This document shows, piece by piece, positions 2,215 through 32,694 of a stretch of DNA of 57,405 nucleotides. The position numbers and the translations under genes were made by a program. Numbering within the stretch: the stretch's first letter is position 1; the number at the start of each line of letters is the position of its first letter. Where the stretch lies: the NCBI GenBank assembly GCA_044892505.1, contig CM097882.1, positions 230,956,596 to 231,014,000 of the forward strand, written 5' to 3'. Origin of the DNA: Schmidtea nova. Its lineage: Eukaryota. Under the pieces are notes generated by a model, which saw only the letters and a program-made list of their open reading frames with translations, was not told where the DNA came from and did no database searches.

Positions 2215-2228
2215 AGTAACGCATTAGT

Positions 2229-7601: not shown

Positions 7602-7602
<1 letters not shown>

Positions 7603-7987: not shown

Positions 7988-8011
7988 CTGATCAGTATAA
8001 ATACTGATCAG
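7988..8011 (+). promoter_or_regulatory. TATA box embedded in a 24-bp palindrome (LTR promoter candidate)
   Basis: CTGATCAGTAT-AA-ATACTGATCAG contains TATAAATA at 7996-8003. The copy is at 33286-33309. Confidence 0.6.
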
Positions 8012-8993
8012 ATTTTTCATAAAATTAGACCGTGTAAAAACTTAGACTTTAGTAGACTTTGTTAGAATATAGATTTTAGACTTGTGACTTTGTTTGAGAC
8101 TAAAATTTAGACTTTGCAAAAAACTTAGACTTGTGTTCAGACTAAAATTCACATTAGATTGCACATTGCCCCGACGACGATCACCGTTTAGACCGATTTT
8201 GATCAATAAATTTTCGGAATTCAATTGAGGTATTTTTGGTATATTTACGTTTATTATTTGATATCGTTGTATTCATATGTCATTATCATATTATAATTTA
8301 TTGTTTATCTCGTTATGATTTATGTTTATATTTAAACTACTTAAACTATCATATTAATCTTGCGCCGTTGGGAGCTTTAGGTTCCCAAGGTGTCCGTCCG
8401 TGGCGTGGTGCTCGAGGGCTCCACACACGGTAAAGTAATAAATAACAAAACATAATTTTATTAGTGATGGTCGAGATTTGCACATGGGACACCCAACAAA
8501 TCCGGGGAATTATTTTCCGATCATTTTAGCTACAGAGGGGACGATAATTTTTTGATAAAGCTTAAAGATATGAAAGAATTTTGTAACCGTGAGGAGGCAC
8601 GAATTGTTCACCCTCACCACAGCACAATTGCTAGATAAACGTCTAATAAACCTTAGAAAAATTATGTCGACCGCATTTGGTACACAAGAGCGTTTTTCGA
8701 ATAAGCTAGGGATACATGACGGGAGAGAGCTTCCGTTTTGAGGTGTCAATATTTTGAAAATCCAAGCAGACAAATCACCAATTTTTCGACTATAATATTG
8801 ATCGTAAACAGATAAATCTAAGTAGATACGAGAGTAACGCATACCGTAACGAACGACAGTTTTCCCTTGATTTCAGTTAAGGTCTAAGGGGTAGGCAAAT
8901 AATAAAGGCATCACGATGAGAGATAACATCTACTATAATTAATTATTGATTTAAATTGTTAACTATTATAAAATTCAGCATCGTTTTGGAATC

Positions 8994-9470
8994 ATGACTA
9001 AACATAGATACACTATCAAAAAACGACAAGAACGAGCCCGAGTTAGCCCATTAAAACCGGCTCCTTTTGAAATTCTGCAGCAAATCCATCAAAAAATGTG
9101 GGCATGGCGCCGAGAGCTTGAAACCGCCTGTCCATTTACAGTATGGGACCATCCACGGCATCACGTATGGTACCGGGGATGCGCTAGTTGGCCAATCATT
9201 CCAGATGAGGAATTTGAATCATCGCACGCCGCCTGGTTCATCCTGATGTTGGACAAAGGAGGATTCCCGAAATGTGTCATTTATTGGGGGTTCATTCCAG
9301 CCTCTACCTTCAAGGAATTGGGGTTCAAGTTCAACACAGCAATACGACCCCTTCGAGAAGCTGAGAGAACCCGTTTCCAGCAGGCCTCGTCCAATTCCAC
9401 AGGAATCCATACAAATTTGCAAATCAGATCGATATTTTCGTATCGAGGAAAAATGACCGAAGATGAATAG
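8994..9470 (+). CDS. LTR-encoded protein 1, 158 aa, unknown function
   Basis: ATG-initiated, GC-richer than its flanks, identical in the 3' LTR (34292-34768). Preceded by ttcag and followed by acctgttttt..aataaa. Confidence 0.7.
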   Translation: MTKHRYTIKKRQERARVSPLKPAPFEILQQIHQKMWAWRRELETACPFTVWDHPRHHVWYRGCASWPIIPDEEFESSHAAWFILMLDKGGFPKCVIYWGFIPASTFKELGFKFNTAIRPLREAERTRFQQASSNSTGIHTNLQIRSIFSYRGKMTEDE

Positions 9471-9788
9471 GTTGAATCAATGGCCACCTGTTTTTGAATT
9501 TAATAAATGTTTTAAAGAAGTCTGAAGTGTCTCATTTTGTTAATAGTGTTGTCATGTAGATTTAGTATTGTAGTTGTCATAGTCATTAAGAAATTGATTT
9601 ATTAATATAAAATTAGTTCAATAAATCTTTTAAACCTTCAATAATTAGATAGTTGAATAATTTTGCGAAGAACTCAATAATTAAAAACATTAGTATGCAT
9701 CTCGTTTAATAATAATAATAGTCGTTTAAATAAAATAGAATTGTTGATAGGTCCTCCAGCGAATTTATCGTTATAATATTCAGATAAC

Positions 9789-10373
9789 ATGCCGACTTCA
9801 GAAAATTCCAAGAAAATCATGGGACAAATCCAAGAGAGGAAGTTGAGGGACCAGCAGCGACAGATCAAGCGACTCACGGTCGCCAATGATGAATTGAGAG
9901 CGAAGTGGTTCTCACCCGAACAAATGAAGGACCAGTCGAAAAAACTTGAGCGAATGCAGGAAGCACTGGCCGCAACATAATTGGAACTAGATGCCGTCCA
10001 GCGAGAACTACGAAATTGCCTAAACGCAGTAACAAGAAGTTACATCGACTCCGAATTACGAGCGCTAATCCGGCCGATCACGGCTCAGCGCTGGATACAA
10101 TGCACCCACCAAGATGTCGCTTGCGGGACGGAAGAGGGAATCATCATGGCCCCCACTCTCGCAACGGAAGATTTGCCTATTTTTCTCAGTGATCCCCCGA
10201 GAACAATAGCGTCAGCACCGGTCATAAACCAACAGTTTCGAAAACATCGAATGGGATCGCGACAGCGTCGTCGTCGCCGAGAATTTGCGAAGCGCCTGGA
10301 CGAACAAATCTACCACTTGAACTCCTTAACCGAAGCGGAGTTGATTCAGGAGATTAGTCTGGAATTCGCTTAG
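9789..10373 (+). pseudogene. LTR-encoded protein 2 (coiled-coil, Arg-rich C-terminus), interrupted by TAA at 9978-80 in this LTR
   Basis: The 3' LTR copy (35087-35671) is an open 194-aa ORF with ACT AAA where this copy has ACA TAA. Confidence 0.75.
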
Positions 10374-10932
10374 GAAAACATCCATGTAAAATAACAACCT
10401 GTTTTTAATATTTTAATAAAAGTATTTTCTGTGTAAATTTTGTCTCTCATCGTGTGATTTCACTAAATAAAATAAATGACTCAATCATAGAAATGGAAAA
10501 TCCCATCAATATTTTTCTCAGACCGACCGTTTCTACGCAGAGACTGATTAATTACATTGTAGCTCGATTAAGGAAAGTCATTGGGAAAGGTGTATGATAG
10601 ATCATAAGGATATGTAGTACAAAATTCAGTAGGAAACGAACATCCATAGAATGTAAATGCGTAAGACCTTCTATCGGCAGCAAGGACCCGAGGGAAGATA
10701 AATGGGGAGTAGTTTTGGCAACAAAGCTCACCTGCCCATCAGTTTTCCACCACCGTATGCAGTACCAACTTGACTAGTAGGGAATAGTCAAGGGCATACG
10801 CGTGTAGTAGTCATGTTATGTATGGTTATGGGCGTGGAATCCCTAGTATACGTACTCACCAATAGTCGTTCAATTAATGATTAACTATTTATTTGAATTA
10901 CTTAAAACCCACCCATAAACCCAGCATAAATT

Positions 10933-10950
10933 TGGGGGCTCAGCCGGGAT
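10933..10950 (+). promoter_or_regulatory. Primer binding site, tRNA-Pro type
   Basis: TGGGGGCTCAGCCGGGAT matches the classical tRNA-Pro PBS TGGGGGCTCGTCCGGGAT at 16/18 and lies just after the LTR end. Confidence 0.88.
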
Positions 10951-11255
10951 CAACTTTGTTTTTATGCGGAAAAGGTGAACCCAATGACAACAGAGAAACT
11001 TAAAATCAGAATTTTGTGAGTAGAAATAGTAACCGAAAGAGTAAACGAGATAAAAGTGAGTTGCGTGGAAATAGATAATTACAAACAGAGAATTAAAACA
11101 AATTAGTAGATAAATTGAACAAATGCATTCATACATAACAGGTCGGGACGACAATTTACCGAAACACGGGGGGAGGCTGTAAAACTGCCAGAAACGAAAC
11201 ACAGTACTACTTTTCGAATAATATTAACACAGTAATTAAATAAATTATCTAGGAA

Positions 11256-11717
11256 ATGGAGGAAAAACTGAAAGAAATCGAAGAATTTTTCAACACCGAG
11301 AACGATACATTTGAGACAGTCTGCGAAAAAATAACCCGAATAAGAGCATCCGAATATGAGGAACCTACGACACAAACTGAGGAAACAACTGAGTTAATAA
11401 AAATCATAGATAAAGTAAATAAACTCGATATAAATACGCGATATAAATGGTACAAAGCACGATTAGAGGATGCCGAGTTGAATATCAGATGCCGACATAT
11501 AGAACAGCAGTTAAACCTAACTTATAACCGATGGATGTCGCAAGGGGTCGAGGCAGCAAAACAATATAAACGATGTTACATATGTGAAGACAGTGAAATC
11601 CAAATAATGTTTCTACCATGCGGACATTTTCGATTTTGTAAAAACTGTGCGAATAAGTGTGATGAGTGCCCCATGTGCAATTTCTCTGTAACTGATAGAA
11701 TTGTAGTTTATTTATAA
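11256..11717 (+). CDS. 153-aa protein with a C-terminal IAP/MDM2-type RING finger, no BIR
   Basis: CYIC..IMFLPCGHFRFCKNCANKCDECPMC...RIVVYL at the extreme C-terminus. Confidence 0.85.
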   Translation: MEEKLKEIEEFFNTENDTFETVCEKITRIRASEYEEPTTQTEETTELIKIIDKVNKLDINTRYKWYKARLEDAELNIRCRHIEQQLNLTYNRWMSQGVEAAKQYKRCYICEDSEIQIMFLPCGHFRFCKNCANKCDECPMCNFSVTDRIVVYL

Positions 11718-12193
11718 TAAATATTTAGAGTGTGTTAATATATTGTATCGAATGACAAAGTCGGGGGAGCAATCAACAATGTTAATTAATTTTTGAGCTA
11801 CTGTCAAGTAGTCCGTTAAGCACCCATTGGGAGGTACCAGTTGATCAACCCACTCGGGGTATATAGAAAGGGGCCAATCGCAAATGTTGGAAAGCTTTTG
11901 TGATGTGATTGATCACCACATCCCGCATTAGTAGACCAACGCGATCTTTTTGTATATTTTGGTTGGGGAGAGAAATAGGGAAAACCACGATGAGTTAAGA
12001 TGCGCGCAGAGAAAATAATAAAAATTGAAGTAGAACTGATCAGCGAAAGAATTAGTAATAAAACAAAGAATCGAGGAATTATAAAGGAAAATAAGAGGTG
12101 CATAATCAGCTCGCATGAAATTGAGAGAACTCAGCTGAGAAATTGTAGTCGCTAGCGAAGTTAAGAATTACGATTAACCGGTTAAGGAAAATT

Positions 12194-12640: not shown

Positions 12641-12654
12641 AGGGATATCCGGAT

Positions 12655-12915: not shown

Positions 12916-13466
12916 GTGATCGTCGACGATAAGGAGAATAGTGCGCACCGATAAAAAGAGAAATGCGAGTAAAGCTGATTATGCGACCTAAAATAATGCA
13001 TGCAAGTAGAATTGAGAAATAGGAGCTGACCGGAAAGACCGGCAGAATTAATAATTAGAGGCTAGCAGAGAGAAAGATAAAGAGATGATAAAATAATAAT
13101 CGAGTCAAATGACTCAGGGAATTAGAGCGTTCGAACGACAAATAAATTGGGAGACCGCGGGAAAAATAATTGATGTATTTTAATAACCGATAGATAATTG
13201 TTATGACTAAATAGATAATTGTGACTAGTATATAGATAATTTAAATAGACTTAAATAAAGGGGAATCTGGGAATGGGGAAAAATAATAGAAACCCAGTAA
13301 TGAGAAGTCCCGTAAAAAGGGAATAAAAGCGCAACGATAACAATAGAGTATCGTTGAAGTGACATTTGTATTTTAGATAAATCAATCAAACCAAACCAAG
13401 CAACCAAGGAAGAAAAGAATCGGAATACGATAAGACAGGAAAATTGAGTATACAAAAGTAATCCCG

Positions 13467-16400
13467 TTGAGAAAAGGAGAAAAGAGTGTCATAATAAAAC
13501 CAGCAGAGAAGAAAGTCGACAGAAAAATCAACAAAGAGGACCCAAATAGTGTGGTAATAAAACCAGCAGAAAAGAATAAAGCTACCAAGAATAATAATCA
13601 GAAAGGCCCAAAAGGAAGTAAAGCAAGGCAGATAATAATACAAAAGTCGATTATCGAAAACGATAAATTATCAGTAACAAGCAACAGTTCAAGCAACAAA
13701 GAAAATCAAGCAGAACCCGAGAGAAACCCAATAAGTGAAATAGAAGTCGACAAAACCAACAACGATTATATAGAAGAAATAGAAGACGAAGTAGAACAAG
13801 AAACAGAAAGTGACGATACCGATAACGATAGTAAAGCATCAGATAACGAATCAACAAAAGAAACTGAGATCGACCGAAATTCGAGTGACGAACCTAACAG
13901 TGAACTAGAAACAAGAGGAAACGAAAGTAAAATAACTACAGACAGCGGAATCGAAATGAGCGAACCAAGAGAAGAGATAAAAGACAAATTTTCCGGAGAA
14001 CCGTTTAATGGAGATGCGAGTAAATTGGAAACTTTCTTAAAAGAATTTGGCATATTCGTGGAAGTATGCAAGTGGAAACCAGAAACAACTATAAGCAGAA
14101 TTCAGCTATATTTAAAAGATAGCGCATTAGATCTATATTTGGAAGCAAAAAATGGAATTAATCCACCTACAAGTTGGTCAGCGATAAAGGACTTTTTCCA
14201 ACAAACCTTCGGAATAAACAAAGTATTGAATGAGGCATTTACGGAATTCTCAATGAGGAAACAAAAGATAAATGAATCGAATGCGGTATATGCAAGCGAA
14301 TTAAAAAAGTTAGCAAAGTTGATTTTCAATCAAGACAGCCCAATAAATGAGGAGTTAATGGCAGCTATCTTTGTGGGAGGATTAAGAAGACCCGACATAA
14401 GAGCGCAAGTTGGATGTCAAGGGTGTAAAACTATTGACCAAGCATTAGAAACAGCTAATAGATTTGAACTACACATGATAGGAAATGACGGTAGAATCTA
14501 TTTAGCTATGGATACAGCACAAAACGAACAAGAAGTGAACCTGAATAACCACATTCCAAATTCACAACAATTAAACCGACCACCACCGCAACGAAGGAAT
14601 GAAGGGAATAAAGTATCAAATTACGGAAATCAAAACAATTACAACCCCCAAGGACCAACGAAACAATGCAAAACATGTGGGAAATTGGGACATTGGCAAC
14701 AAGAATGTTATCAGAACTTGAATTGTGGAAAATGTGGAGTAAAAGGACATTCAGAGAGCAGATGTTATACAATAACCTGTTTTAATTGTGGACGACCTGG
14801 ACACCTATCAAGAAAGTGCGGACAAAGAAGCAATCAACGAGGAAACTGGCAGAATATTGGAAACCGACCAAACTATGGAAACCAACCAACTGGTGGAAAC
14901 CAACCGAATTATGGGAATCAGCCAAATAATGGAAACCGACCGGAATACGGAAACCAGCAAAATAATAATAATAACCAAAATAAAAACACCACTAAAGAGA
15001 TACATTTAATGCAAGAGGTTCAAAGATTGACGGAGCTGATAAACAATACAAACAGAGGAAATCCGCAAACAGGTCAACAACAAATCAACATGATGAGAAA
15101 AATAGAAAGCGAAAACGAACGATTGAATCGGGAAAGCCAAGCACGACATGCTCAGGAATGGGCAAGAATACAAAGAGAAGAGGAACAAAAACAGCAAGAA
15201 AGAGAACGACAACCTCTAAGAATTAATATGATGAGAGCAACCAATCAAACAAATACCCACGAGAAAGAGACGGTGCCAGAAATAAATCCAACAAACCTGA
15301 ATCCAACCAATAACGAAAGTCGAAAAGAAATAGTACCAGGAAGCGAAGAAGTAGAAAAAGAAATAGAGAAGGAAGTGGAAACAGAGGTAAACCAGGAAGA
15401 GAAAAAAAAGATTTGGAAAAAGGGAATGATGGTAATCCTGCCAAACGGTCATATGTTTCGATTCCAATACAACATAAAGGAAGAAATAGGAATATTGTTC
15501 AACAAAGTAAATGAAATGGCTCCAGGAGTAACGAAACTGCCCAGAGAAGCATTCCTAAAAATAGAAGGTGCACCAGAAGTAAAATTGAAATTAACAGATA
15601 CATGGGAAAACATGGGAGTAGTAGAAACAAAAAGAAATGTGATGGTAATCAAAGAAATAGAACCAGAAGGAATTCCACCGCCAGTGCGTCACGAAACACG
15701 AATCAGTCGAATATTTAAAGGGAAAATGATACGAAGACGGTTGGGAGAAATAGACGAGTTGGAACGAAAAATGAGAAAGGTCGAAGTAGTAGACGATGAG
15801 AGTAAATCAACACAAAAAACTATCGAAAATGAAACGAAACCAACGGAAAATACACCAAGTGAAATCAACCAAATAAAACACATTAACATGTTGAGAGGCC
15901 AGGCAAAGAATTTTTCAGACGACGAAGAGGATAGTGACGTCAGTAGTCTAGCCGGAGACATGCTAAACGAACCGGAAATTGAAGACAAAAAGATAGAAGT
16001 AGTAAAGACACAAGGAACTATTCAAGTAAAAGAAGACGAGATCCAGAAATTATTAGATAATACGCTAGAAGTAATATATAATGAGGAATTCATTGACAAG
16101 AAACACTATAGAAAATTCATGAGAGCGATATTACAAATGAACTATAAAGAGTGGTTACCAGGCCGGGAAGTAGAAACACTAACCCAATACGTAGGAAAAT
16201 TATTAAAAGAACCACTCCATGAATATATAATCCTAATAGAGATAAAAACATGTTTGCCAAGGATTTGGATCAAAACTCCACTCACGGAAGATATTTACCA
16301 ATGGGTAGAAGACAGATTAGGGAGCTCGTATAAGAACAAATTCCTCTATTCACAGAATGGACTAGTAAAGAAAAGGACGCATTTGATAGAAACAGGCATA

Positions 16401-19400
16401 TGGCCAGGAGAGGTGACAACATTATCGATATGCGATGATAAGAGAGAAGAGAACATACAAGAAGTAGCAAAGGAAGCGAATACGTGTTTCGAGAAGAAGA
16501 TAAAACCACGGTCAGAATATGAGAAAGGACGAATCTTACGAGGAAATCTAAACTCCATGATAGAACAAATCATCCCACAAATCAAAAAACATAGGAAGGA
16601 GTTAATGAGAAGCGAATACGAGAAGTTGAAACGATGTATCGAGTGCATACGTGACACAAGTCACACGAGATGGTCACAGATCTCATACGGAAAAGTAATT
16701 GCAAAAATGGGAAAAGCAATGTTCAGACAAGGGAAAATAACAGATCTGAAAATTGCAGTAGAGTTACCTAATGAGGATACCAAAGAAATTGAAGTGGTAG
16801 CAGACTGTACCATAAAAGAATTAGTAAATGTCCTCAACGAGACACTATTACAAAGAGAACCAGAAGAAGAATGGGAAGATGACATAATCATGAAATATAA
16901 TGAACATGTATTATGGGATCACGATGAAAGACGGCTATATAAAATTGGTATATGGGATAATCACCAAACCATCCACGTTATCAGAATGGACGATAAACCA
17001 AGAGAAACTGCTAAAGATGAGAAAAGAGAACGGGAACGACAAAAAGAAGTTGTGCATAAATTACAACAAATAGTAGACATCTATCGAAATTGGCGGATTT
17101 GGCCAGAATGGGAAGATGTATTAGAAGAACTCAATCTCAACAGACGATTACGAAAACCTGTAGAAAAACAATGGAACGAACGAGGAAAATGTTGGGAACC
17201 AAAAGCAGGCGAATACGAAGAGGAATACGAAATAGGCATAGAAGACGATCACAAACCGGAAACCGGAAGAGTCTGTATGGTAACAAGAAAAGCCATGCCA
17301 GCGGATTTAGACGGACCTGAAACAACAACCATGTGGTTGGAAAGAGAGAAACAAAAAACAGAAGAATTTGTCGAAATATTAAAAACCAATGCGCACGGCA
17401 AGAGAAAAGTAGTAAAAGGTCTCGCAGATTTTTTCGTAGTTAATGGAGAAGACATAACATGCTTTCGTAAAGTAGCAAAAGCAATCGCCGAATACAAAAG
17501 AGTTAACGAGTGGTGTCCAGAACAATTGGATCACGTAATTAAAAAATGGAGAAACCAAGAATTCTCGCAGGAATCGCCACAGAAAGTACACCTAAGAATA
17601 GTATATCCGAACCAAGAAAAGGAAGAGTTTTGGGTAGGGATAGCGGAGAAAGTTCGAGACATTAAAAGGAAATTGAGATATGAACCACCATTCCATTTAC
17701 AACACCAAGGACGATCATTAGATAACAGCTTAGAAATTGGAATAACGCCAGCGCAATTAGATATCGCAAATACATTGACAGTGGCAGCAATAGCAGGCCA
17801 ACCATTAAAATTGAAAGAGGAAAAGAAACCAAAAGGAAGTATGAGTACGCCGAGCCCAATGAAATCGGTAATGACTCCAGGAACAAGCTCAGAACAAGCT
17901 AGAACAACACCAAGAGAGACAAGAGAAAGAACACCACCAGAACCATACGATGTAGACGAAATTTTTACAGATAGCGATGATATGTTAGAGGAGTTAATAG
18001 AGCTAACAAAAGAGAAAGATGATAATATTTTCGAAAGAATTCAAGAATTACCAACAGCAATACCGGTAACCAACACCGAAGATGAAGTTGAACAAGAAAT
18101 AATCATCGAAGAAGTAAATGAAATAGCAGAAGAGGAAGCAAGGAGGGCAAATGTAGAAAATGTACAATTCACACAAGAAATGGAAAGATGGTTAGAAGAA
18201 AGAGCCAATGAACCAAGAGACGTCACAGAAGAAACTGGACGAGAAACAAGATTAGTAGAAACGGGCACGACAATGGACAAACGACCTAGAGGTAGACCCA
18301 AGATGGATCCAGCAAATGTAATTATAAAATCAAGAGAGGAAAAAAGACGGGATCAATGGGATTTGTGTCTAAAGAAACTAAATAAAATAGCCGAAACGAA
18401 AGAAAAAGAAACAACACAAACATACCAAGGCGAGGAATGGATATCAAAGATGTTAATGGAAATACTGGCAATAATCGATCCGGAATTAAAGAAATGGTGG
18501 AGAATAAACGAAATAAGCGAAAGGGCGAAATCACTGCATAGCGCCATCGCACCAATCCTACCAGAATTAATAAAAGAGAAGACAAGGTCAAACCACCTAG
18601 ATTGGCAAGGAACCACGATGTTGATAAAGAAGTTAACGGAAGGAGCAGAGACGGATAACAAATATTTAATAGCTATGGCATACACCATTTACAATCTGCT
18701 GACACTGAGTAGAGGTCGACTGAAACCCACAGCACTTGAAAGACATATAAAGAATACAGCCAAAATTATAGAGAAGGAAATAGAACCGTACATCATCAAT
18801 AAAGGAGGATGGGAGACATTCACAAAAACAAACCAAAAGAAAAACCAATCCAAAAATATGAAAAAGAAATTCGAAGAGATATTGGGAGAATTGGAAAAGG
18901 AAAAGTCGGGAACAGGAAACGGGAAATCATCACTAAACTTGAGTTCTATTATTATGATGATGTTAATATGGATGATTAGTACTGACGGCGCAACAGCATT
19001 TGAAGTATTCGATTGCGATCAAATGGCATTAGGTGAAAAATACTCATTACGAGGGACAGAACAATGTAAAGACGCAACCCCAACGGAGCTAAAAACATTA
19101 AAAAAGAGACAATTATACCACGTATATCAGGAAGCTGAACTGATAAGAACAATGGTCAGGGAATGCAAAGTTTATAAAACCAGATTTGCTTTTTATTGTG
19201 GACACCGCCATTATTCAGCAATCGTGATGCCAGGAACGGAAAGAGAATCAGTAATGCTGCAAGGAGAAGACTGTGAAAAATTATTCAAACATGGAGAAGT
19301 AGAGACCAGAGATAGAGTAAAGATAAGAGGAAAAACGGGAGTAATATTACAACAAACATACTATGTAGCAGGAGCTATTACGGGAGGAGAAGGGTATTGT

Positions 19401-23800: not shown

Positions 23801-26800
23801 TTGTGCCACAAGAAAGGATAGTGGGAAGAAATGGAAAAATCCCTTAAAACCCATGCCGATACCAGCAGAACCAATGACTACCATTGCGATGGATGTAATA
23901 GGACCATTGCCAGAAAGTTTAAACGGGAATCAATATATATTGGTAATAACGGATTATTTGACTAAATTCCCTGAAGCATTTGCGATGCCGGATCAAAAAG
24001 CAAAGACCGTAGCAAGAATTTTAGTAGAGGAAATATGTTGTCGATATGGAACTCCGAAACAAATACTGACAGATCAAGGGACAAATTTTATGAGCGAAAT
24101 ATTAGATGAAGTAACAAATTACTTCAGAATAGCCAAATTACGAACGTCACCATATCATCCGCAAACTAATGGACAAACGGAAAGATTTACCGGCACATTG
24201 ATTCGAATGTTATCCAATTATGTAAGCAAACACCAAACAGATTGGGATGAGTACATAAAGCTATGTCTAATGGCATACCGAATGTCGATACACGCAGCAA
24301 CAAAATTGAGTCCATTTCAATTAATGTATGGAAGGGAATGCAATATGCCAATAGATCTTGAATATCAACCACCTTTGTCTCAATATATGGAGGAAGATGA
24401 TTACGTCACCAAATTCAAAGAACGAATGCAAGAGATATGGAAGACCGCAGAACTAAACATAAAGTTTTATCAAGAGAGTTACAAGGACCTACACGATCAG
24501 AAGAAGAATGTTAGAGCAAATGATCTTAAACCCGGAGATTGGGTAATGATAGAAACCCCAGAAATAATACCAGGAACCGTTAAAAAACTACAAAGACCAG
24601 GAAAAGGCCCTTACGAAGTTATATACAAAAAGGAAAACAATGTGAAGGTAAAACTTGTTAATCGACCATTGATACGACCAATATACGTTAATACATGCAG
24701 ATGTAAAAAAGTACCAAAGACAATAACCACAGCGCCAGAAGAACGAATAATAACCAGATCCCAGACAGCCAGAATGAATATGCTCAGAGCAACCAATGAA
24801 AGTACCGAAGCAGAAAACAATCAACAAGAAAAAAGAAACAAGGAAATTGTACTAAAAGCCAGAGAAATAATGGGAAAATGGCATGTCAGAGACGATATAT
24901 TAAGAGATATTCAGTCGATAATTAGTGATTACGCAAGGGGACTACCAACAAAACCAGTCATTTCAGAACTACTGGAAAAGATTCCAGAAATACTTTCACT
25001 AGAAGACATAGGAGGACAACCAGCATTACATAACGCCATAAAATGGGGAGAAGTAGAGAGAGTAAAAGAATTTCTAAAAATCGCTAAGGAAACAAACCAA
25101 CACCTTGGTTTTGGGAATAGCGAACAAGAAACACCATTAATGGTAGCAGCCATCTACAAATCGGATAAAGCAATAATAGACCTTTTGATAAATGCCGATT
25201 TCAACTGGACGGAACGCGATAGAGAAAACAAAACAGTCTTGAATCACGCAATATGGAGCTCAAATCAGATAATGCTCAAACAAATAATCGAGAAGGCCAC
25301 TTGGGAAATAGACGAACTGATCAAAGGTGATATAATCAAGGAGGCAATAAAAATCGGTAACTGCAAAACAATACGCAAGCTAATAAAGTGGAAAAGATCC
25401 GAAAATGATACATGGGTATTAAATATAAACGAGGTATACAGTGAAGGACAAAACGCGTTATTACAATTCCTATTAAAATTAGTTTGTGATCAGAAAACAC
25501 TGTTAATATTATTGGACAGAAGAAATATTACAATTTCCAAAAACAAAGAGGAGTGTAAATTCGAAAGGGAAAAAGAAGCATTATTCAGGAAAATTAGGGA
25601 ATGGTGTGCAAAATCGCTAACCAAGACGATAACTTACAAAGATATATCCAATTTTCAAGACAAATACAAAACGGTGGAGGAAGAGTATGACAAACTAATA
25701 GACATATTAAACCACCCTGAAAAATGCAAACAATTCCTATGTCGAAAGGAAAGAGAAAGCAAAAGGAAATTTACACCACTTTTCAGCGCAGAGATACCAT
25801 ATCAAGAAAGGTTAGATGCGATACAGGACAAAGCAAAAGAACTATTACCAGAATTCGAAAATTCTAAACATACACTGGAGATACTCGGAGCAATTGTGGA
25901 AAAGGTACACGCATACGCGGAAGGAACTTACAATGAAAACGATATGATGATCATAAAAAGAGAAATGCCAGTGACTTTCTTATTAACAAAGAATGGAGTA
26001 TTGCCAATACATAGAGCCTTACGAGCAGGAAAAGATAGGAGGGTAGTCGAAATTGCACGGTTGATGCAAGATTGCGGAAGTGACATGAACATGAAAGATA
26101 AAAAGGGAGATACTCTCATGATATTCGCAGCAAGAGCGAACACAAAAACCCGAGTGTTACAGGAACTGTACGAAGCAGGTGCAGGACTCATGGGAAGAAC
26201 CAACAAAGACAGCTCAATACTAGACGTAGCGTTGTTAGCGCACAATTGGGAGGTGATAAATTTCATAAAAACAATCACAAATCAGGAGGAAATAGAATAC
26301 CTTATAAGGACAGTTAAAAAAGCTAGCGTACATTCCATGATGCATAACGCTGGACTAACCGAAGCAATACTCAATTGGATGAACCCAAACACCAATGAAC
26401 CAGCATTCAGGATCAACGAGTTCATGGAACAAGGCCAAAATTTGTATATAAAGTGGGCATTAATAATAAACAAATGGCCAAAGATAATAGACATCTTCAT
26501 GAGAAGAAAAGATTTGCGATTCACAAACAACCCAAAGGAAACAGAACGTACGGACAAATGGAAAGAACTAATGAAAACGTACCTTAATAATTGGATAAAA
26601 GCCAAGAAAGAGATTCTAGATTGTAAATTAACCGATAAGGAAATACCTAAGCAGGCAGTAACACAAGAATATAAAGCAAGTATACTCACAACCATAACGT
26701 ATGAAAAAATGGTAGAAGCAATAAATGTCGAGGACGACATTTTCAACGACCAAAGGGGAGGCGACAATACAGGAAACGACGACGATAGTACTCGAGAAAA

Positions 26801-28907
26801 TCCAGAGGATCATGAGTTATCAGATGAAGAGGACAGTGAAGAGAAAGGAAGGGACACAGAGAAAAAGGATAAGAAAAATGAATTTGGGAAACAAAGAAAC
26901 AACAACTATAAAAATAAAAACGAAGCAAAAAGAACAAGCTACAAACAAACAATAAATCCATTCTTTAAACCAGAACTATTATTACTAACGGTAATCATGA
27001 CCTTAATTAGTCCCACTCAAGGAATGATATGTGAAGAAAAAGCGACAATACAAATTGGAAACGCAAAAGGAATCGAACGAGTATGTTGGTCAAAAAAGGA
27101 CAAAATATCGGGACAAAATAGTCCAATGGATTGCAGGATCTCAGAATACGAACAAGAAATCATAGAGATCGATGACCTAGAGCTAGATACTTGGTACAGA
27201 ATGTGCACCGTTCGGAAACCAAAGGATCCGAGATCACATAAGACAATTGCATGTGCAAATTACCTAACACCCAAAATAACCATAACAGTACAGCAGACAT
27301 CCAAAGGAGACTACGTCGTAGGAAAGTGTGGAAAAACAGAGACCCAAGGAACAAAAAACAAAAAAACCCAGACAATAGATAGACGAACAACGCCAACTAT
27401 ACGAATTACCATAGACAGGCCCGAAGCAAGAGTAACCACAAATGAAACCGAAAGAGTGACCTACCAAACAGAATTACTATGTTTAGCACTCATATTAACA
27501 ATGTTAAAACGGTTAGAAGAAGGGATAGACATTGACACAATGGCAGTAACAGAGATGATCGACACCCAAAACACCAACCCAAAGTGTTGGGCCAGAAGCA
27601 ACGAAGAAATTGGCGTAAGCGAAATAAAGACGAGTTGGAAAAGGAAAACAAATAAAGTAACCAAGATATCAGAAGTAAAAGCAGACAGGACGTATGAACT
27701 ATGTTTACTAGAAAAAGAAAGACACAAGAAAGGAACGACAATTTGTAAAACATTTCAACCTGGGGAAACAATAAAGTTCATAAGACGAGGAAGAAAAAAT
27801 ATACGCACCAAACGGAGAACAACTATAATGTTAGAGTTAACCGGGATAGAACCGGACGTCAAAGGCGTATGCTGGAAGAAGCAAGAAAAGAAAACAAACC
27901 AGAATACACCGCCGCAATGTCGAACAAACAGAGGAACAACCACAATACAGATAGAAGGGTTAGAAAGTAATCAAACGTACGAAATATGCCTGATCAGGAA
28001 GAGCGACAAAATAACAGTAAATGAACTGGAATGCAAAATATATAAAACACCCACCAGAACGAGAATTGGAAAGACAACGCAAAAAAGCAGAAGACAACGG
28101 AACAAAGGAAAAGCGAGGTATACCACTACTTTTAAACCTAATGGACAACAGAAAAACCAAGAAATACAAATAAAGAATACTACAGCAACTCTTATACTAG
28201 GGAGAATAGACAATAAAACGTTAGAAATATGTTGGGCAGTAGTTCAGGAACGAAAAGAAAGACGGCCACGAAACTGCGAAAACGTAAAAGGAAAAGAAGA
28301 AATGAGTATCAAAAATCTGAAATTTAATAGAGAATACGAGATATGTGCGGTAGAAAAGACGGACATATTGGGAAATCAGCAGGAAAGATGCGAAACGTAC
28401 TACACACCGGTAAACTCAACGTCCAAAGGGAAAGTGAGAAAACTCGAATTTAAAGAGTTAAGTCAGACAACGAAACAAATGGACGAGGAACAAGTAGTAA
28501 TAGACCCTTACGCAAGATGGACGCCGGAAGAAGTAATTAGAGAAGTTAAAAGAAAACAACAAGAACGAGAACAACTACTAAATAAACTAAAGGGACAATA
28601 CGGACCAATGATTAACCAGAGTGAAATTACGAAGATGGACGTAAACAAACAAGTTAGAGAACTAATTGGTCTAGGAATACTAGCAGCAACTATTCCAGTA
28701 ATAACAGTATTATTAATAATATGGATATATGATGTATTCAACAAGAAACCAATAACACATTGGCCAGATATAAAGATTATGAACTACAGTATAGAATTAC
28801 CGGAGGAAGTACAGAAAGAATTCCAAAGGAGGACGAAAGGTAAAGAATTTTGGAGACAAATAGAGGATGAAGAGCGATACGAAGGAAAGACAGTGATGGT
28901 GATATAG
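20154..28907 (+). CDS. pol: Polyprotein part 2: glycoprotein C-half + TM, PR, RT, RNase H, IN, ankyrin modules, FN3-like membrane protein
   Basis: IDTGA (21372), SPWQFPVVMVKKKDG, YIDD (22590), TDASG, HDGKLGGH..CLTC, MDVIGPLP, TDQGTNF, HPQTNGQTER, GPYEV. Confidence 0.96.
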   Translation: MYVYICKKTNAKVATMTKLQPGQCTNELEIEYKGKVRYVQPVTRIINPISFEPNPFNCSNAYGPLYQRPDGNWVMFPSRTEVPAPREFELMQLSKGRKFKDVDVSNMGFYSAKDLEAARQNILFPARREAVLSSIVTITGGTNYQGGPNYELLLSPAHFKKATENMMKAMWGRFLIFGQMMAGILGVILIIQIIRVIITQMLACFDIYKREKKVNWKLVVGFLPFLAKTMVLHGHSKDIHRIKRLLKILAKMKGTDEEVGRKFKKIMNNEQARQQLKKERKGLWERMKGYRTQDDSSDDDDDDNEGGQVYKNQVPQYVEKNPAEMWKCYAPAPTMYQEPTPGMRQNTMQMMPMTNIYPMIPEDYRTRRCRSVDPQGDSHTIAVMSSNTGPVLTTTIEINGREIEAMIDTGANISAIDIKWIPQEQRRDIERTNVHVIACSKEVVEVAGRWRVKIKHQNTEIETYVAVIPALSVPCIIGTDLMPALFKEIVIDLGTMRLKDRTGQICAIEAKVTSSKQIIVPARRKKICFVKIDPTIEGDMIFEPSKRFEKRKSLPMARGLVSANDNGEIPINVVNFDEEDKIIYENERLGKLTPMIDIEIPIKEGVKEEEPTWNIDSQLLNEEQKKQLERLLIEYKDIFAASDLDLGTCDVTLHTIPLTDETPIALRPYKLAEAQKSVAEAEVQKMLDAEVIEPSCSPWQFPVVMVKKKDGTQRFCIDYRRLNAVTKRDTYPLPDINEMLLTLQGAAYFTSLDLKSGYWQIKMKEEDKEKTAFPIGRDLYQFRKMPFGLTNAPASFQRCMNFVTHGIKQCMVYIDDLLIYSSTFEQHIQDIRDVFVRLRQWKLKLKPSKCDWAKEKVTFLGHIVSAKGKEPDPRNIDKVKECPVPKTITQIQEFLGLCGYYRKFIKDYAGIAKPIQELVKKDVSFIWGSEQQTAFETLRDRLITAPILVHPDFKKPFLLATDASGYAAGAVLGQYDDEGKERVIGYYSRTFKKHEKNYSVTEREALAIILAIKHFKYLLWGHIICITTDHQPLVWLGQHKETSSRLMRWAMQLQEYSPDIKFKSGKANANADCMSRLTFPELTDPEVQRICIMIAEDLDFSELKKDQQEDKELRPIIEFLSSRNMDVFKDNTELKEHMRKYQHRYTIEKGWLLIRDGEKRLMCLPGNRRKEIITQYHDGKLGGHMSDKKTLDRMRQKYYWPTMDEDVKEWIKNCLTCATRKDSGKKWKNPLKPMPIPAEPMTTIAMDVIGPLPESLNGNQYILVITDYLTKFPEAFAMPDQKAKTVARILVEEICCRYGTPKQILTDQGTNFMSEILDEVTNYFRIAKLRTSPYHPQTNGQTERFTGTLIRMLSNYVSKHQTDWDEYIKLCLMAYRMSIHAATKLSPFQLMYGRECNMPIDLEYQPPLSQYMEEDDYVTKFKERMQEIWKTAELNIKFYQESYKDLHDQKKNVRANDLKPGDWVMIETPEIIPGTVKKLQRPGKGPYEVIYKKENNVKVKLVNRPLIRPIYVNTCRCKKVPKTITTAPEERIITRSQTARMNMLRATNESTEAENNQQEKRNKEIVLKAREIMGKWHVRDDILRDIQSIISDYARGLPTKPVISELLEKIPEILSLEDIGGQPALHNAIKWGEVERVKEFLKIAKETNQHLGFGNSEQETPLMVAAIYKSDKAIIDLLINADFNWTERDRENKTVLNHAIWSSNQIMLKQIIEKATWEIDELIKGDIIKEAIKIGNCKTIRKLIKWKRSENDTWVLNINEVYSEGQNALLQFLLKLVCDQKTLLILLDRRNITISKNKEECKFEREKEALFRKIREWCAKSLTKTITYKDISNFQDKYKTVEEEYDKLIDILNHPEKCKQFLCRKERESKRKFTPLFSAEIPYQERLDAIQDKAKELLPEFENSKHTLEILGAIVEKVHAYAEGTYNENDMMIIKREMPVTFLLTKNGVLPIHRALRAGKDRRVVEIARLMQDCGSDMNMKDKKGDTLMIFAARANTKTRVLQELYEAGAGLMGRTNKDSSILDVALLAHNWEVINFIKTITNQEEIEYLIRTVKKASVHSMMHNAGLTEAILNWMNPNTNEPAFRINEFMEQGQNLYIKWALIINKWPKIIDIFMRRKDLRFTNNPKETERTDKWKELMKTYLNNWIKAKKEILDCKLTDKEIPKQAVTQEYKASILTTITYEKMVEAINVEDDIFNDQRGGDNTGNDDDSTRENPEDHELSDEEDSEEKGRDTEKKDKKNEFGKQRNNNYKNKNEAKRTSYKQTINPFFKPELLLLTVIMTLISPTQGMICEEKATIQIGNAKGIERVCWSKKDKISGQNSPMDCRISEYEQEIIEIDDLELDTWYRMCTVRKPKDPRSHKTIACANYLTPKITITVQQTSKGDYVVGKCGKTETQGTKNKKTQTIDRRTTPTIRITIDRPEARVTTNETERVTYQTELLCLALILTMLKRLEEGIDIDTMAVTEMIDTQNTNPKCWARSNEEIGVSEIKTSWKRKTNKVTKISEVKADRTYELCLLEKERHKKGTTICKTFQPGETIKFIRRGRKNIRTKRRTTIMLELTGIEPDVKGVCWKKQEKKTNQNTPPQCRTNRGTTTIQIEGLESNQTYEICLIRKSDKITVNELECKIYKTPTRTRIGKTTQKSRRQRNKGKARYTTTFKPNGQQKNQEIQIKNTTATLILGRIDNKTLEICWAVVQERKERRPRNCENVKGKEEMSIKNLKFNREYEICAVEKTDILGNQQERCETYYTPVNSTSKGKVRKLEFKELSQTTKQMDEEQVVIDPYARWTPEEVIREVKRKQQEREQLLNKLKGQYGPMINQSEITKMDVNKQVRELIGLGILAATIPVITVLLIIWIYDVFNKKPITHWPDIKIMNYSIELPEEVQKEFQRRTKGKEFWRQIEDEERYEGKTVMVI
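24840..26640 (+). other. Two tandem ankyrin-repeat modules after integrase
   Basis: GGQPALHNAI, ETPLMVAA, KTVLNHAI, then GVLPIHRAL, GDTLMIFAA, SSILDVAL. The paired ends read INEVYSEGQN and INEFMEQGQN. Confidence 0.8.
26970..28907 (+). other. C-terminal type-I membrane protein with FN3-like repeats
   Basis: Signal-like ELLLLTVIMTLISPTQG, four VCW..C..I..L...T.Y.IC..C modules, and TM LIGLGILAATIPVITVLLIIWIY at 28662-28740. Confidence 0.65.
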
Positions 28908-29032
28908 GAGGCGGGATATGACTGTAAATAATAGTGTAAATAACAATGCATTATCGTAATAGTATGGGTATCGATATTATAAAAATATAAAAAGAGAAAT
29001 CGAGAAAACGATTAATGTATATAATTTAGAAA

Positions 29033-29389
29033 ATGAACGAACAGGAAGAAATAGCAGAAACTACTATGGCTATGCGATGGAAAGCCCAGTGTGACATGTT
29101 AATACGAACAATCAACTCACTACAAAATCAGTTAATTGAGAAACAGAATTTGTTATCCGAAAGTTATAATAATAGTTTTGAACAACTCCACAGAATCGAG
29201 GAGCAACAGAGATTGATAACGCAACTTACCAGAGAGAATCAAGTAATGAGCGACATAAATCAGAGACAAGCAATAGAGATAGACCGTTTAACAATGGGAG
29301 AGACAGAAGAAGCAGAGGATGGATGGACAAATTGGGCAATAAACAGATCAGAAAACGACCCAGAACCAGATTCAACAAACGAGCCGTAG
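29033..29389 (+). CDS. 118-aa coiled-coil accessory protein
   Basis: ATG ORF with heptad-like Q/E/L content, flanked by AT-rich spacers. Confidence 0.65.
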   Translation: MNEQEEIAETTMAMRWKAQCDMLIRTINSLQNQLIEKQNLLSESYNNSFEQLHRIEEQQRLITQLTRENQVMSDINQRQAIEIDRLTMGETEEAEDGWTNWAINRSENDPEPDSTNEP

Positions 29390-29479
29390 ATAAATAAAGC
29401 GAAAAATTGTAAATATGTAAAACAAAAACAAGAAAAATCAAAAAATAAATAACAAATCAAGTGTATATATCATTGTAGA

Positions 29480-30862
29480 ATGAATACAGAAGGAAAAGCC
29501 GAAGAGCGGATAATCGAAATTTTGAGAGCCGAGAACAGGAAATGGAGTCAGAGACTCACTTGTGTAAATTGTAAAAACAAAATATTGAAACCAAGACAAA
29601 CCCTATGCGGATGCAGAGTATGTACCAAATGCATACACGAGTTAAGTATGAAAAGACCACCAGAATGTCCAGAATGCAAAGAAGGACAAATAAAATTCGA
29701 AGAAACCGGACCAGATAGAGCAACTCAGAGAGAAATCATGAACACGAAAACCGAATGTATAAATCAACCATGTATATGACAAGGACAAATACGCGATCTC
29801 GAGAACCATCTGGAGAACTGCGAAGAGAAGAGAACTGAATGTAACAAATGCCAACAAAAAATAACTATAAAGAATAAAGAGCAGCACAAAGATGAATGTA
29901 AAGAAGAGGAAAGTCTATGCGAATATTGTGGAACTCGAGAAACGAGGAGAAAGATCGAAGAAGAACACCTGAATGTAAAAGAGGAGAAAGTATGTAGACA
30001 ATATGTAGGAATATGTGCAAACGAATGCGAGATAACGGTAGAAGTAAAATTACAAGAACATTGGAAAGTGTGCACGGAGAAACCAAGGGAATGTCCTTAT
30101 AACAAACAGGGATGTATGGAGAAAAGAACGCAAAAAACCATGAAACAACATCTGGAGGAAGCATTGCTAAAGCATGCGGAAATGACAAACGAAGCAACAA
30201 AAGAAACCGAACAAACAATCAAAAAATTAGAAAGAGAAATAGAGTCACACAAGATAATGGTAAACCTACTGTTGGAAACCAGAGAGCAATTCGAACTAAC
30301 ACGAGAAAAGATGGAGGAAAAGATAAAAGCTATCGAAGAATTGGCTAAAGGAATGAAAATCCAGTACAACAAACTCACCCAGGATACCGAGGAAAAGTTA
30401 CCAATCGCACCATATGTGTGGAAAGTGACAGATTTTAGAGACAAATTAACAGAGGCCAGAAATATGACGAAAACAGCAGTAATAAGCCCACCATTTTATT
30501 TATGGAGAAACGGAGCTAAAGTGAGATTGAAGCTATACCCAAATGGAGACGGAAGAGGACGAGGAACACATGTGTCAATATTTTTCTCGCTATGTAAAGG
30601 GGAATACGACGACCTAGTAGAATGGCCCTTGAAAGTAGGAGTCATTGTAAGAATCAGAAGTGTAACAAAACCAGTAGAAAAATTCTTTGAGACAGAGAAA
30701 CATGCGAGTACGAGCGAGAAACCAACCACAGAATGTGGATTAGCAGCGGGAGAACCGATGTTTATAACGAAAGAAAGCCTATGGGAACGATTATATGCAG
30801 ACACCCTATACATAGAAATGGAAAGGAATGAGAAAGCGGATAGAAAAGGATGGTTGACGTAA
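29480..30862 (+). pseudogene. TRAF: TRAF-family protein (RING, TRAF zinc fingers, coiled coil, MATH), 460 codons with one in-frame TGA at 29777-79
   Basis: ORFs 29480-29779 and 30068-30862 are in one frame, and I found no other stop between them. MATH motif YVWKV..F...SPPFY...LYPNGDGRGRGTHVSIFF..GEYD..EWP. The TGA sits at the Trp of C.W.G. Confidence 0.9.
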
Positions 30863-30977
30863 CAAGAAAAGTGATCATGTAAATAATATGTACAGTTAAA
30901 TACCCAAAAATTATTATATAAACAAAAATAACTGATATATAAACCGATTAAAAAATTCTTTTTCTGTAATTATAGCA

Positions 30978-32039
30978 ATGGGAAATATCGAAGTATGCTT
31001 ACAGGAAATTACGATGCATCAAGCAGAAGCGATTAGCGATCATCTAGAACAGATCGAAATATGGGTCAATGCATATTATAGAAAGCAGGAGAAGGTAGAG
31101 AGACAAGCCGAATTATTAAAAGAAGCGGAAAGATCAAGTCAAAGAAGTCGAGAAAAAATAGAAGAAGTATACAAAATGCTAAAACAACAAAAGGAATATT
31201 ACCAGGGAATGATGAAAGAGCGACGAGAGGAAAGAGACAGACAGCAGATGGAAACAGAACACAAGATGTATTCGATTACAGAACAAGCAAGATACTGGAA
31301 GAAAGAAGCGAAAGAATCTTACGAAAAAGCTAGAGAAATAATAGAACGGACAGCTTATAGTGATGACTGGAAGTTATATAAAGAGATCGATGAACTAAAA
31401 GACGAGTTAGAGCAAAAAATCAACCAGGAAGTGTTAAATAAAAGATGGAATACAAAAAGACAGCAATTTATCCGCGAACAAGCAAAGGAAATTAAAGGAC
31501 TAACCTATCAAGTTCAAAGAATGGGAGAAGAACTAGCTAATCAAGAACAACTGAAAACTATGCTCACCGGAATATGGAATCAGAAAGAAGAAGAGATGAA
31601 GAGAGATATAAATGGTTACCAAGGAGTGATTACCCAGAAGAAAATAGAGCTAAAAAGAACCAGAGAAAGGTTAAAGGAAGAGAAACAAAGTTATGAGGAA
31701 AATTTAACAAATTTGATGAAAGAAAACGAAGAATTGAAACAGAAACGAGTAACAGTATCGGTAATACCTAAAGAAGCAAGTATAACGGCAGCCGTAACAA
31801 AAATGATGAAAGAAGACGAACAAAAGACAAAAGTAATCGAATTAGAAAAGCAAATAGAAACATTAACAGAACAAGCAAATTACCTAGAATATTGGCTGGA
31901 CGAGGAGATCCAGATATCTCACATGTATCGAGATGAAGTCGAAATGTGGAGGAGCAGGGTTGTTTGGATACCACTCCCTACGAACCAGGTAGAACCTCAG
32001 GACGAAGGTTTCTACGAACCAAACGAGACGATTGTGTAA
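30978..32039 (+). CDS. 353-aa coiled-coil accessory protein
   Basis: Long E/K/Q-rich ATG ORF. Confidence 0.75.
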   Translation: MGNIEVCLQEITMHQAEAISDHLEQIEIWVNAYYRKQEKVERQAELLKEAERSSQRSREKIEEVYKMLKQQKEYYQGMMKERREERDRQQMETEHKMYSITEQARYWKKEAKESYEKAREIIERTAYSDDWKLYKEIDELKDELEQKINQEVLNKRWNTKRQQFIREQAKEIKGLTYQVQRMGEELANQEQLKTMLTGIWNQKEEEMKRDINGYQGVITQKKIELKRTRERLKEEKQSYEENLTNLMKENEELKQKRVTVSVIPKEASITAAVTKMMKEDEQKTKVIELEKQIETLTEQANYLEYWLDEEIQISHMYRDEVEMWRSRVVWIPLPTNQVEPQDEGFYEPNETIV

Positions 32040-32121
32040 ATAAAGCGGAAAATATATTTTTGTAAATAATTGTATGAAATGTAGTGTCAAATTGTATTGA
32101 CCTATCTGTAAAGAAAACAGT

Positions 32122-32694
32122 TTGAAAAAGCTCAGAATACCGATATTCCTATACCTAATAACAATCACCCTACAAAGAGAAGATCTTCAACTCACAGAGA
32201 AGGAGCTACGAGCCCTACCCGAGAAAACCTATCAAGAGCTAGATAAACTAATCAGCGAAGCAACACAAGAAATCACCCAACTTCAACAGATAACATTAGA
32301 CAACCCAAACGATGAAAAATTTCAACAGGTCCTATACGAACATCGAATCAAATTGAAAACAATCAGAAAAACCCTAAAAGAAGGTCGAGAACCCATAAAA
32401 AGCTTAGCCCAAGCAGAGATAGAATATCAAGAAAAATGGATCATCGCAATTATAATAATCCTTGCACTCAGCGTGACCATTATCGCGATCACAATCCTCA
32501 TAACATCCTACCGAGTAAAGATCCTAAAACAAAAACAAGTCATCTTGAATCGAACAACAATACCAGATATCAGAACCCAAAAACGAATGAGAAAACATCT
32601 CAACCGAATCCAAAGCCTCTACGAACTACGAACAATCAGCGAAAGAACCCCAATCCAATCCAATACCAATCATGAAATCAAAGAGCTGGTGTAA
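32122..32694 (+). CDS. 190-aa predicted membrane protein (signal-like N-terminus, TM WIIAIIIILALSVTIIAITILI), TTG start
   Basis: Open frame. (M)KKLRIPIFLYLITITLQ looks like a signal peptide but the first codon is TTG. Confidence 0.6.
   Translation: MKKLRIPIFLYLITITLQREDLQLTEKELRALPEKTYQELDKLISEATQEITQLQQITLDNPNDEKFQQVLYEHRIKLKTIRKTLKEGREPIKSLAQAEIEYQEKWIIAIIIILALSVTIIAITILITSYRVKILKQKQVILNRTTIPDIRTQKRMRKHLNRIQSLYELRTISERTPIQSNTNHEIKELV

Follow-up and report, generated by a model that had tools for sequence, protein, structure and literature searches.

The locus studied here raises the question of how one long provirus can express eight genes that lie on the same strand behind a single leader. 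The window, meaning the whole stretch of 57,405 nucleotides of Schmidtea nova DNA that was analysed, carries a giant Ty3/gypsy provirus of about 28.6 kb in total, with an internal region of 22 kb and long terminal repeats (LTRs) of 3.3 kb; we call it Burro-like on the ground of described features and domains. The element is of a kind known from flatworms, and all eight of its genes are preceded by a splice-acceptor-like site. Our reading, to which we give a probability of about 0.7, is that each gene would be expressed by cis-splicing of the LTR leader to that gene's own acceptor, probably with polyadenylation after its stop.

The Burro and GYPSM1 elements of planarians are giant and gypsy-like, with an internal region of up to 25 kb, a total length above 30 kb, one polyprotein of about 5,000 amino acids, and BIR and BCL2-like domains (PMC6431247). 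The present element shares with them its giant size, an in-frame env-like fusion domain separating gag from PR, ankyrin repeats, MATH/TRAF and accessory ORFs; it differs in its length, in carrying MATH/TRAF as a downstream accessory ORF and in having two ORFs inside the LTR. BIR and BCL2-like domains gave no Pfam match in it at E 0.01. The 5' and 3' LTRs show 4 differences in 3306 nt. Sister copies were drawn from a genome search in which the best 150 of 2431 candidates were scored, more distant Burro families lying outside the sample; these copies are related, so that counts among them are not independent. The control region and the repeats are laid out as follows.

7602..10926, + strand: 5' LTR, TG...CA, 3.3 kb, holding promoter, leader, donor and two ORFs; end mapped through 12 of 13 sister pairs
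7996..8003, + strand: TATA box, present in all leader types and located in 117 of 122 3' regions
8012..8229, + strand: ATG-free leader exon (start site presumed), with AATAAA at 8205 in this leader type
8230..8235, + strand: predicted major splice donor GAG/GTATTT, ahead of the primer site; the exact deletion of sister L052/L053 begins here
10933..10950, + strand: primer-binding-site-like stretch adjoining the LTR end
32900..36205, + strand: 3' LTR, known from LTR comparison, with a second set of donor, both acceptors and both ORFs; it enters an N stretch

The primer-like stretch resembles tRNA-Pro primer sites; a search for a tRNA gene found none. The sequence-only reading had proposed an ATG-free leader ending at a donor at 8229/8230, and this was confirmed to the base, with no ATG in 8012-8229. 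Sixty LTRs keep the GT of this donor, two are spliced and two carry a point-changed donor. Under a calling rule that requires GTA and T-richness, 114 of 117 leaders are free of ATG up to the GTA site, in leader types strongly divergent in sequence. A first donor-pattern search gave 7 matches, all of them unrelated chance ones. In a second subfamily, 77% identical, and in other LTR types the leader is likewise ATG-free, the donor is a GTA site and YAGs adjoin the ATGs.

The genes between the leader and gag are three.

8976..8978, + strand: acceptor for LTR ORF1; a second AG lies 11 nt downstream in some sisters
8994..9470, + strand: LTR ORF1 from the ORF list, 158 aa, with no Pfam match
9781..9783, + strand: acceptor for LTR ORF2, matched by the spliced-form provirus L052/L053
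9789..10373, + strand: LTR ORF2, 194 aa, with no Pfam match; a stop at 9978-9980 breaks this 5' LTR copy, and the 3' LTR copy at 35087-35671 is open
11250..11717, + strand: acceptor 11252 and RING-finger ORF 11256-11717 (PF13920, E 7.8e-12)

YAG ends had been placed at 8978, 9783, 11252, 13376, 29029, 29478, 30975 and 32120, and all eight were found there. Leaving gag aside, the distance from acceptor to start is 15 nt at 8978, 5 at 9783, 3 at 11252, 3 at 29029, 1 at 29478, 2 at 30975 and 1 at 32120. A YAG thus lies within 5 nt of the start in 6 of 7 ORFs, compared with 16% of the 532 remaining + strand ATGs in the element (binomial 1.1e-4, with the 5-nt threshold picked after the data were seen); the threshold-free Fisher test gives p 0.0056 for the seven sites and p 0.015 when 32122 is left out. 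The comparison set of non-coding ATGs shows the adjacency in 8 of 72, and the background in the LTR survey is 12.7% of 5154 ATGs. Under post hoc thresholds, an AG-free zone of at least 15 nt with T of at least 0.33 marks 7 of the 8 sites and 46 of 805 YAGs, the weak site being 32120 with a zone of 5 nt. Since 8978 and 9783 lie inside the LTR, the donor and both sites recur at +25298 in the 3' LTR. Among sister copies, LTR ORF1 has a YAG within 5 nt in 66 of 109 and at 15 nt in 40; where the AG at -15 has been lost, one stands at -4. ORF2 starts have a YAG within 5 nt in 84 of 103, and in most of the other 19 first ATGs a later homologous Met has one. The RING ORF carries its YAG 2-3 nt upstream of the ATG in both subfamilies.

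Evidence for splicing is found in DNA. Both LTRs of the sister provirus L052/L053 lack exactly 8230-9783 (GT...AG), which joins 8229 to 9784. They are 1749 nt long with 2 mismatches, the element is flanked by a 4-bp target duplication, and its remainder is colinear. The overlap shared at the join is AG alone (2 nt); given the left end, the predicted right ends are 2 of 169 downstream AGs of the LTR, and the first ATG after the TATA box becomes that of ORF2, 5 nt beyond the join. The exact loss in both LTRs, together with the target duplication, makes L052/L053 look copied from a cis-spliced RNA, and it is best explained by the predicted donor 8230 joined to the predicted acceptor 9783. When its natural junction was used as the query, with the best 40 of 320 candidates scored, full-length matches came only from its own two LTRs. 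In L113/L161, of another leader type, both LTRs are 2438 nt, the deletion begins exactly at its GT donor, and the join ends at the second ORF1 AG, 11 nt downstream of the equivalent of 8978. This right end is ambiguous, the AG being present in only 4 of 33 same-leader sisters and in 2 of the 3 nearest, and the deletion could be a 4-nt microhomology event. In an unbiased survey of 122 regions, 3 of 4 large deletions are not GT-AG, and L050 is another non-splice deletion; one of the non-GT-AG deletions is also present in both LTRs, so that presence in both is by itself no proof of splicing. Proviruses thus join the one 5' donor to one accessory acceptor exactly and to a second probably, the others being predicted from sequence. 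Cis-splicing of the LTR genes is, on this basis, highly probable.

The gag-env-pol gene calls for a similar route, and is laid out as follows.

13365..13955, + strand: acceptor 13376 and a 579-nt ATG-free stretch up to the gag Met, with a stop-free frame at 13434-13955 in phase with gag
13956..28907, + strand: gag-env-PR-RT-RH-IN-ankyrin polyprotein, from Pfam; a stop at 20145-20147 breaks this copy

Pfam domains run in the order zf-CCHC, PF24664, RVP, RVT_1, RNase H and rve, with the env-like domain between gag and PR. The stop is absent from both sister pieces checked, and comparison with sister pieces led us to reject ATG 20154 as a separate pol start. A strong acceptor had been claimed before gag; it stands at 13376, and the gag Met (13956) is 579 nt further on, across the longest ATG-free gap in the element. 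The acceptor was located in 26 of 28 regions, with the sequence ATG-free to the Met in 24 of the 26. In unspliced RNA, 88 ATGs and three ORFs would precede gag. These ATGs, the conserved acceptor and the ATG-free stretch suggest that gag would not be translated from unspliced RNA in the retroviral manner, although an IRES may drive it from there. We consider cis-splicing likely for both RING and gag.

The four remaining genes form a compact 3' array.

29027..29389, + strand: acceptor 29029 and 118-aa ORF; YAG within 5 nt in 115 of 116 located starts
29476..30862, + strand: acceptor 29478 and TRAF-like ORF (zf-TRAF, MATH); a stop at 29777-29779 breaks this copy; YAG within 5 nt in 115 of 116
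30973..32039, + strand: acceptor 30975 and 353-aa ORF, charged and probably forming a coiled coil, with no Pfam match; YAG within 5 nt in 117 of 118
32118..32694, + strand: weak acceptor 32120 and 190-aa ORF, hydrophobic at its N-terminus and with a membrane-like stretch; YAG within 5 nt in 85 of 108

In 23 of 108 copies no YAG stands within 5 nt of the start of the last ORF. Its supposed TTG start at 32122 did not hold: the start codon is broken in this copy privately, all 12 mapped sisters have an ordinary one, and TTG initiation was rejected. The 3' acceptors lie 21-24 kb from the donor, beyond several poly(A)-like signals, and the spacers from stop to acceptor are 122, 89, 113 and 81 nt, compared with 313-1659 nt in the 5' part. 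For this array, cis-splicing is only slightly favoured.

Its foremost competitor, unlikely as a whole, keeps cis-splicing for the LTR genes (perhaps also for RING and gag) and makes the four 3' genes an operon, whose acceptors, unpaired after cleavage, take a host spliced leader (SL). The array spacing of 81-122 nt fits an operon, matching the intercistronic peak near 100 bp in the available text on Macrostomum (PMC8629364), and SL trans-splicing is reported in Schmidtea (PMC12582326). However, the flatworm SLs described in the available part of that source end in ATG, yet the offsets from acceptor to ATG vary freely among copies: 3 or 2, 1 or 3, 2, and 1, 2 or 3 nt for the four genes in turn, mostly out of frame. 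At gag, the reading in frame from the acceptor ends after 18 codons in the window and in 13 of 13 sisters, and on this ground an SL-derived AUG was rejected as the gag start. Additionally, operon acceptors have no cis donor upstream, whereas a working one exists here, joined to 9783 in the provirus for the LTR genes. Trans-splicing, offered by the sequence-only reading as its second branch, is therefore unneeded for the LTR genes and disfavoured for the 3' genes.

An improbable alternative has the 3' genes transcribed either from a promoter inside the element, close to where pol ends and equipped with a donor and a short first exon of its own, or from a set of separate small promoters. Foamy virus (tas/bet) and MMTV offer precedents (PMC12789967, available part). 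The polyprotein gene has three further AG/GTA donor-like sites, at 19825, 23650 and 24648. The motif TGTAAATA presumably also fits a forkhead site, which was counted for this alternative. Against it, spacers of 81-122 nt leave scant room for promoters, and all six copies of TGTAAATA are + strand copies found no more than 30 nt from a stop, which is what an RNA element would show. Its identity as a CFIm poly(A) element is doubtful, planarians being described in the available text of PMC5068929 as having neither the UGUA motif nor CFIm.

That no splicing is programmed at all (YAG-ATG arising from composition or initiation context, the GT/T-rich run being the downstream element of a poly(A) site at 8205, and the proviruses being template-switch deletions) is very unlikely: an AATAAA is present at 8205, upstream of the donor, and non-splice deletions are in the majority, but this AATAAA occurs in just 14 of 117 leaders and the donor-like site is a general feature of them, which disfavours a poly(A) site as the main meaning of the run, the ends in L052/L053 are exact, and YAG-ATG adjacency is retained in dissimilar LTR contexts.

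In the preferred cis-splicing scheme, the one donor at the end of the ATG-free LTR leader would serve all eight genes, being joined also to RING, gag-env-pol and the four 3' genes; each RNA would probably be ended by a poly(A) signal a short way past the stop of its gene, and the unspliced RNA would be the genome. For 6 of the 8 stops an AATAAA or ATTAAA is found no further than 100 nt away (a count without chance control), which suggests alternative last exons. A nested set of mRNAs spliced from one leader had been proposed; the splicing stands, and the nesting is doubtful, single-gene messages being more likely. Since the donor lies upstream of the primer site, RNAs joined to RING, to gag or to any of the four 3' genes would be without that site and could act only as mRNA. 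It is retained by the two intra-LTR splices alone, and spliced proviruses are seen for these only. Junction copies at 11253 (RING), 13377 (gag) and 29030, three of the six non-LTR sites, gave 0 matches each, as expected if the primer site is lost; a search for the junction copy of one subfamily-2 donor also gave 0 matches. In runs X1-X4, whose kind is not on record and whose cover of the region is flat, no joint among the matches listed fell on a predicted site, an uninformative result. The complete scheme, which would resemble the late unit of a small DNA virus, is put forward tentatively: a single leader spliced to any of eight alternative last exons at distances of up to 24 kb, gag-env-pol included, with no protein from unspliced RNA, mRNAs beyond the LTR genes that cannot be reverse-transcribed because the primer site is gone, two genes in U5/R and a non-AUG long form of gag.

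The literature searched yielded no published description of such a scheme; the Burro section of PMC6431247 is silent on ORF expression, and the original Burro paper and Repbase supplements, outside the search, may show part of it. Nothing bearing on splicing stands in the available parts of PMC8532177, PMC11410931 and PMC13238120. The Burro group includes some of the largest LTR elements, with cargo of apoptosis and ubiquitin type. The donor and acceptor bases are now exact and at least one splice has evidence in DNA, so that the whole map can be tested with existing RNA data from planarians, either long-read or from piwi-knockdown animals, in which Burro RNA is reported to rise (PMC8532177). 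If gag needs splicing, this would be an unusual solution to the conflict between mRNA and genome, with the logic of complex retroviruses in a Ty3/gypsy lineage.

Complex retroviruses (lentiviruses, HTLV, WDSV) likewise make accessory proteins from spliced mRNAs and use unspliced RNA as genome, but translate gag-pol from the latter (PMC12789967, available part), whereas here gag-env-pol would need a spliced RNA, Env lies inside the polyprotein and two spliced genes stand between leader and primer site. Foamy viruses also have the major donor inside the LTR, in both LTRs and near a poly(A) signal; their donor is upstream of the signal, whereas the single AATAAA here is upstream of the donor and not conserved, and their accessory genes use an internal promoter (PMC3694450, available part). 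The Drosophila MDG1-group elements 412 and Stalker are Ty3/gypsy with small ORFs upstream of gag and, as a further likeness, an early poly(A) site after sORF1, but the available text gives no evidence of splicing there (PMC11952523). BARE1 likewise keeps separate RNA pools for translation and reverse transcription; it is a Copia element, its pools come from two promoters, and its splicing favours a gag-only RNA (PMC3735527, available part).

The donor, the acceptors and the small reading frames picked out by the sequence-only reading all lie within one LTR element, and every donor and acceptor coordinate holds on re-reading of the sequence.

Features of the element (all + strand)
7602-10926, 5' LTR (LTR-LTR comparison)
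8229/8230, donor GAG/GTATTT, end of the ATG-free leader
8978 and 9783, acceptors of LTR ORF1 and LTR ORF2
10933, primer-site-like stretch
11252, RING acceptor
11256, RING finger (Pfam)
13376, gag acceptor
29029, 29478, 30975 and 32120, acceptors of the four 3' ORFs
29480-30862, TRAF/MATH (Pfam)
32900-36205, 3' LTR, running into an N stretch (LTR-LTR comparison)

The LTRs show 4 differences over 3306 nt, and the long frame encodes a zinc knuckle, a Monjiviricetes-type fusion glycoprotein, protease, RT, RNase H, integrase and ankyrin repeats (Pfam). The element is of an already known type: its domain content and build match the published description of planarian Burro elements (PMC6431247). A planarian is the likely host. 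The family is large, with 486 candidates from a promoter-region query and 2431 from a MATH query, the latter including a 97-100% and an 87-89% group among 150 scored. The window copy is damaged at 9978, 20145, 29777 and 32122; the TTG start proposed at 32122 is damage private to this copy, the start being ordinary in 12/12 mapped sisters. Directly adjoining the insertion on the left is an RT-bearing element in nested palindromic copies (1318-7541; RVT_1 E 1.3e-8), which may be Penelope-like, and an inverted pair of 29-nt tandem arrays, about 340 nt apart, occupies 54907-55882.

A YAG stands at most 5 nt before the start codon in 6/7 ORFs, whereas the share is 16% for 532 other ATGs (p 1.1e-4 at a cut-off set post hoc; Fisher 0.0056). 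An AG-free, T-rich run precedes 7/8 sites, as opposed to 46/805 YAGs. Thirteen sister copies keep the donor GT and the AG at every mapped acceptor, 9783 being unmapped in one and the four 3' sites in one.

DNA evidence of splicing comes from a genome search for copies whose leader end is not followed by G, which returned 4 matches, against 60 LTRs with GT. Two are both LTRs of one copy with a point-changed donor. The others (L052 and L053) are the LTRs of a single provirus, and in both of them 8229 abuts 9784. The absent 1554 nt have GT as their first and AG as their last two letters; only AG is common to the two ends. The LTRs measure 1749 nt with 2 mismatches, a 4-bp target duplication is present, and the remainder is colinear with the window. 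The search selected the left end but not the right, which falls on one of 2 predicted sites among 169 AGs. This provirus is best read as a fossil of a spliced RNA, and it shows in DNA the position of the donor and its use with 9783.

An unbiased survey of 122 regions found four deletions of at least 200 nt (L113, L074, L122 and L142). That in L113, present in both LTRs, has its left end exactly on the GT of a different leader type and its right end 4 nt short of the ORF1 ATG. Since the right-end position is AG in few same-leader sisters (4/33, including 2 of the 3 nearest), the event can be read as splicing to an alternative acceptor or as a deletion through 4-nt microhomology; the donor is probably used with the ORF1 acceptor. 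The ends of L074, L122, L142 and a further deletion, L050, are not GT-AG, so template-switch deletions are common. As the L142 deletion likewise occurs in both LTRs, the splice argument is carried by exact ends and not by duplication. In L050 (963-1100) a leader runs into the middle of the 118-aa ORF that follows 29029; the join falls on a short word common to both, not on splice sites. The provirus with the point-changed donor (L054/L055, L059-L060) carries this change in each of its LTRs and has lost about 9.7 kb internally (window 16263-25988); a donor-less genome could therefore still be copied.

Of the proposed splicing from one leader, the join to 9783 is thus found in a provirus and that to ORF1 is probable, while the acceptors of RING, gag and the four 3' ORFs would draw on the same LTR donor. 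Joins past 10950 would remove the primer site, so that such RNAs could not become proviruses. Separate genome searches gave 0 matches to proviral junctions at 13377 (gag), 29030 (the 29029 site) and 11253 (RING), which fits this loss and is uninformative on the joins themselves.

We sampled 122 3' regions (13 + 9 + 100) from the promoter-region and MATH candidates, leaving out twelve elements with GT already known. For the four 3' ORFs in order, 115/116, 115/116, 117/118 and 85/108 of the homologous starts that could be located have a YAG no more than 5 nt away, starts not being located in 6, 6, 4 and 14 regions. Among the 117 regions with a located TATA box, 114 lack ATG as far as a GTA site that precedes a T-rich run; the calling rule selects GTA, and only the ATG absence is independent evidence. 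Against a background of 12.7%, YAG lies within 5 nt upstream of LTR ORF2 starts in 84/103 and of LTR ORF1 starts in 66/109, with 40 more at 15 nt. In most of the exceptions inspected there is one more in-frame ATG upstream, and the YAG sits 1-2 nt ahead of the homologous Met that comes later. These counts come from related copies, not independent trials, but the upstream contexts form several dissimilar clusters. Leader types are many, some alignable to the window in short pieces only. In L021-L160, internal regions that are near-identical are joined to 3' LTRs with many leader and LTR-ORF types downstream of a constant TATA context, which suggests frequent recombination or fast R/U5 turnover.

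The operon-like alternative, in which a spliced leader (SL) is added in trans, is possible for the four 3' genes, whose spacers of 81-122 nt resemble those of flatworm operons (PMC8629364). However, the acceptor-to-start offset differs from group to group and varies freely among copies, which counts mildly against it because flatworm SLs end in ATG (PMC12582326). For gag, a conserved stop 18 codons past 13376 means that initiation could not rely on an AUG brought in by an SL.

Unspliced RNA has 88 ATGs upstream of gag, and 579 nt after 13376 lack ATG, part of the element's longest ATG-free gap. Across 33 5' regions, the gag Met occurs in 28 and the acceptor in 26, with an ATG-free interval between them in 24/26. 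Within it, 13434-13955 is stop-free, ATG-free and in phase with gag (174 codons before Met). Against subfamily-2, a more diverged group, every indel is a multiple of 3 and phase is kept in 9/9 comparisons; synonymous/non-synonymous changes number about 24/29 here and about 55/10 within gag. These hints make a non-AUG-started long Gag possible. Between RING and the gag acceptor, three tandem arrays (12193-12933; units of about 30, 40 and 43 nt) are candidate packaging or export signals.

The donor/acceptor arrangement is real. The overall scheme resembles that of complex retroviruses (PMC12789967) and the donor position that of foamy viruses (PMC3694450); what sets the element apart is that its gag mRNA is apparently spliced and that genes lie between the leader and the primer site. 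MDG1-group elements also have upstream small ORFs, but show no evidence of splicing (PMC11952523). No description of Burro splicing turned up in the literature searched, which did not include the original Burro paper.

The RNAs may end at poly(A)-like signals past each gene's stop. AATAAA/ATTAAA follows 6/8 stops, and neither pol nor the last ORF, a count in AT-rich DNA without a control. All 6 TGTAAATA of the element (28923, 28935, 29408, 30878, 32035 and 32061) are on the + strand, at most 30 nt from the pol stop or from that of one of three 3' ORFs, and TGTAAATA recurs near the same stops in 4/4 subfamily-2 copies; it may be a Pumilio/PUF element, whose consensus it fits.
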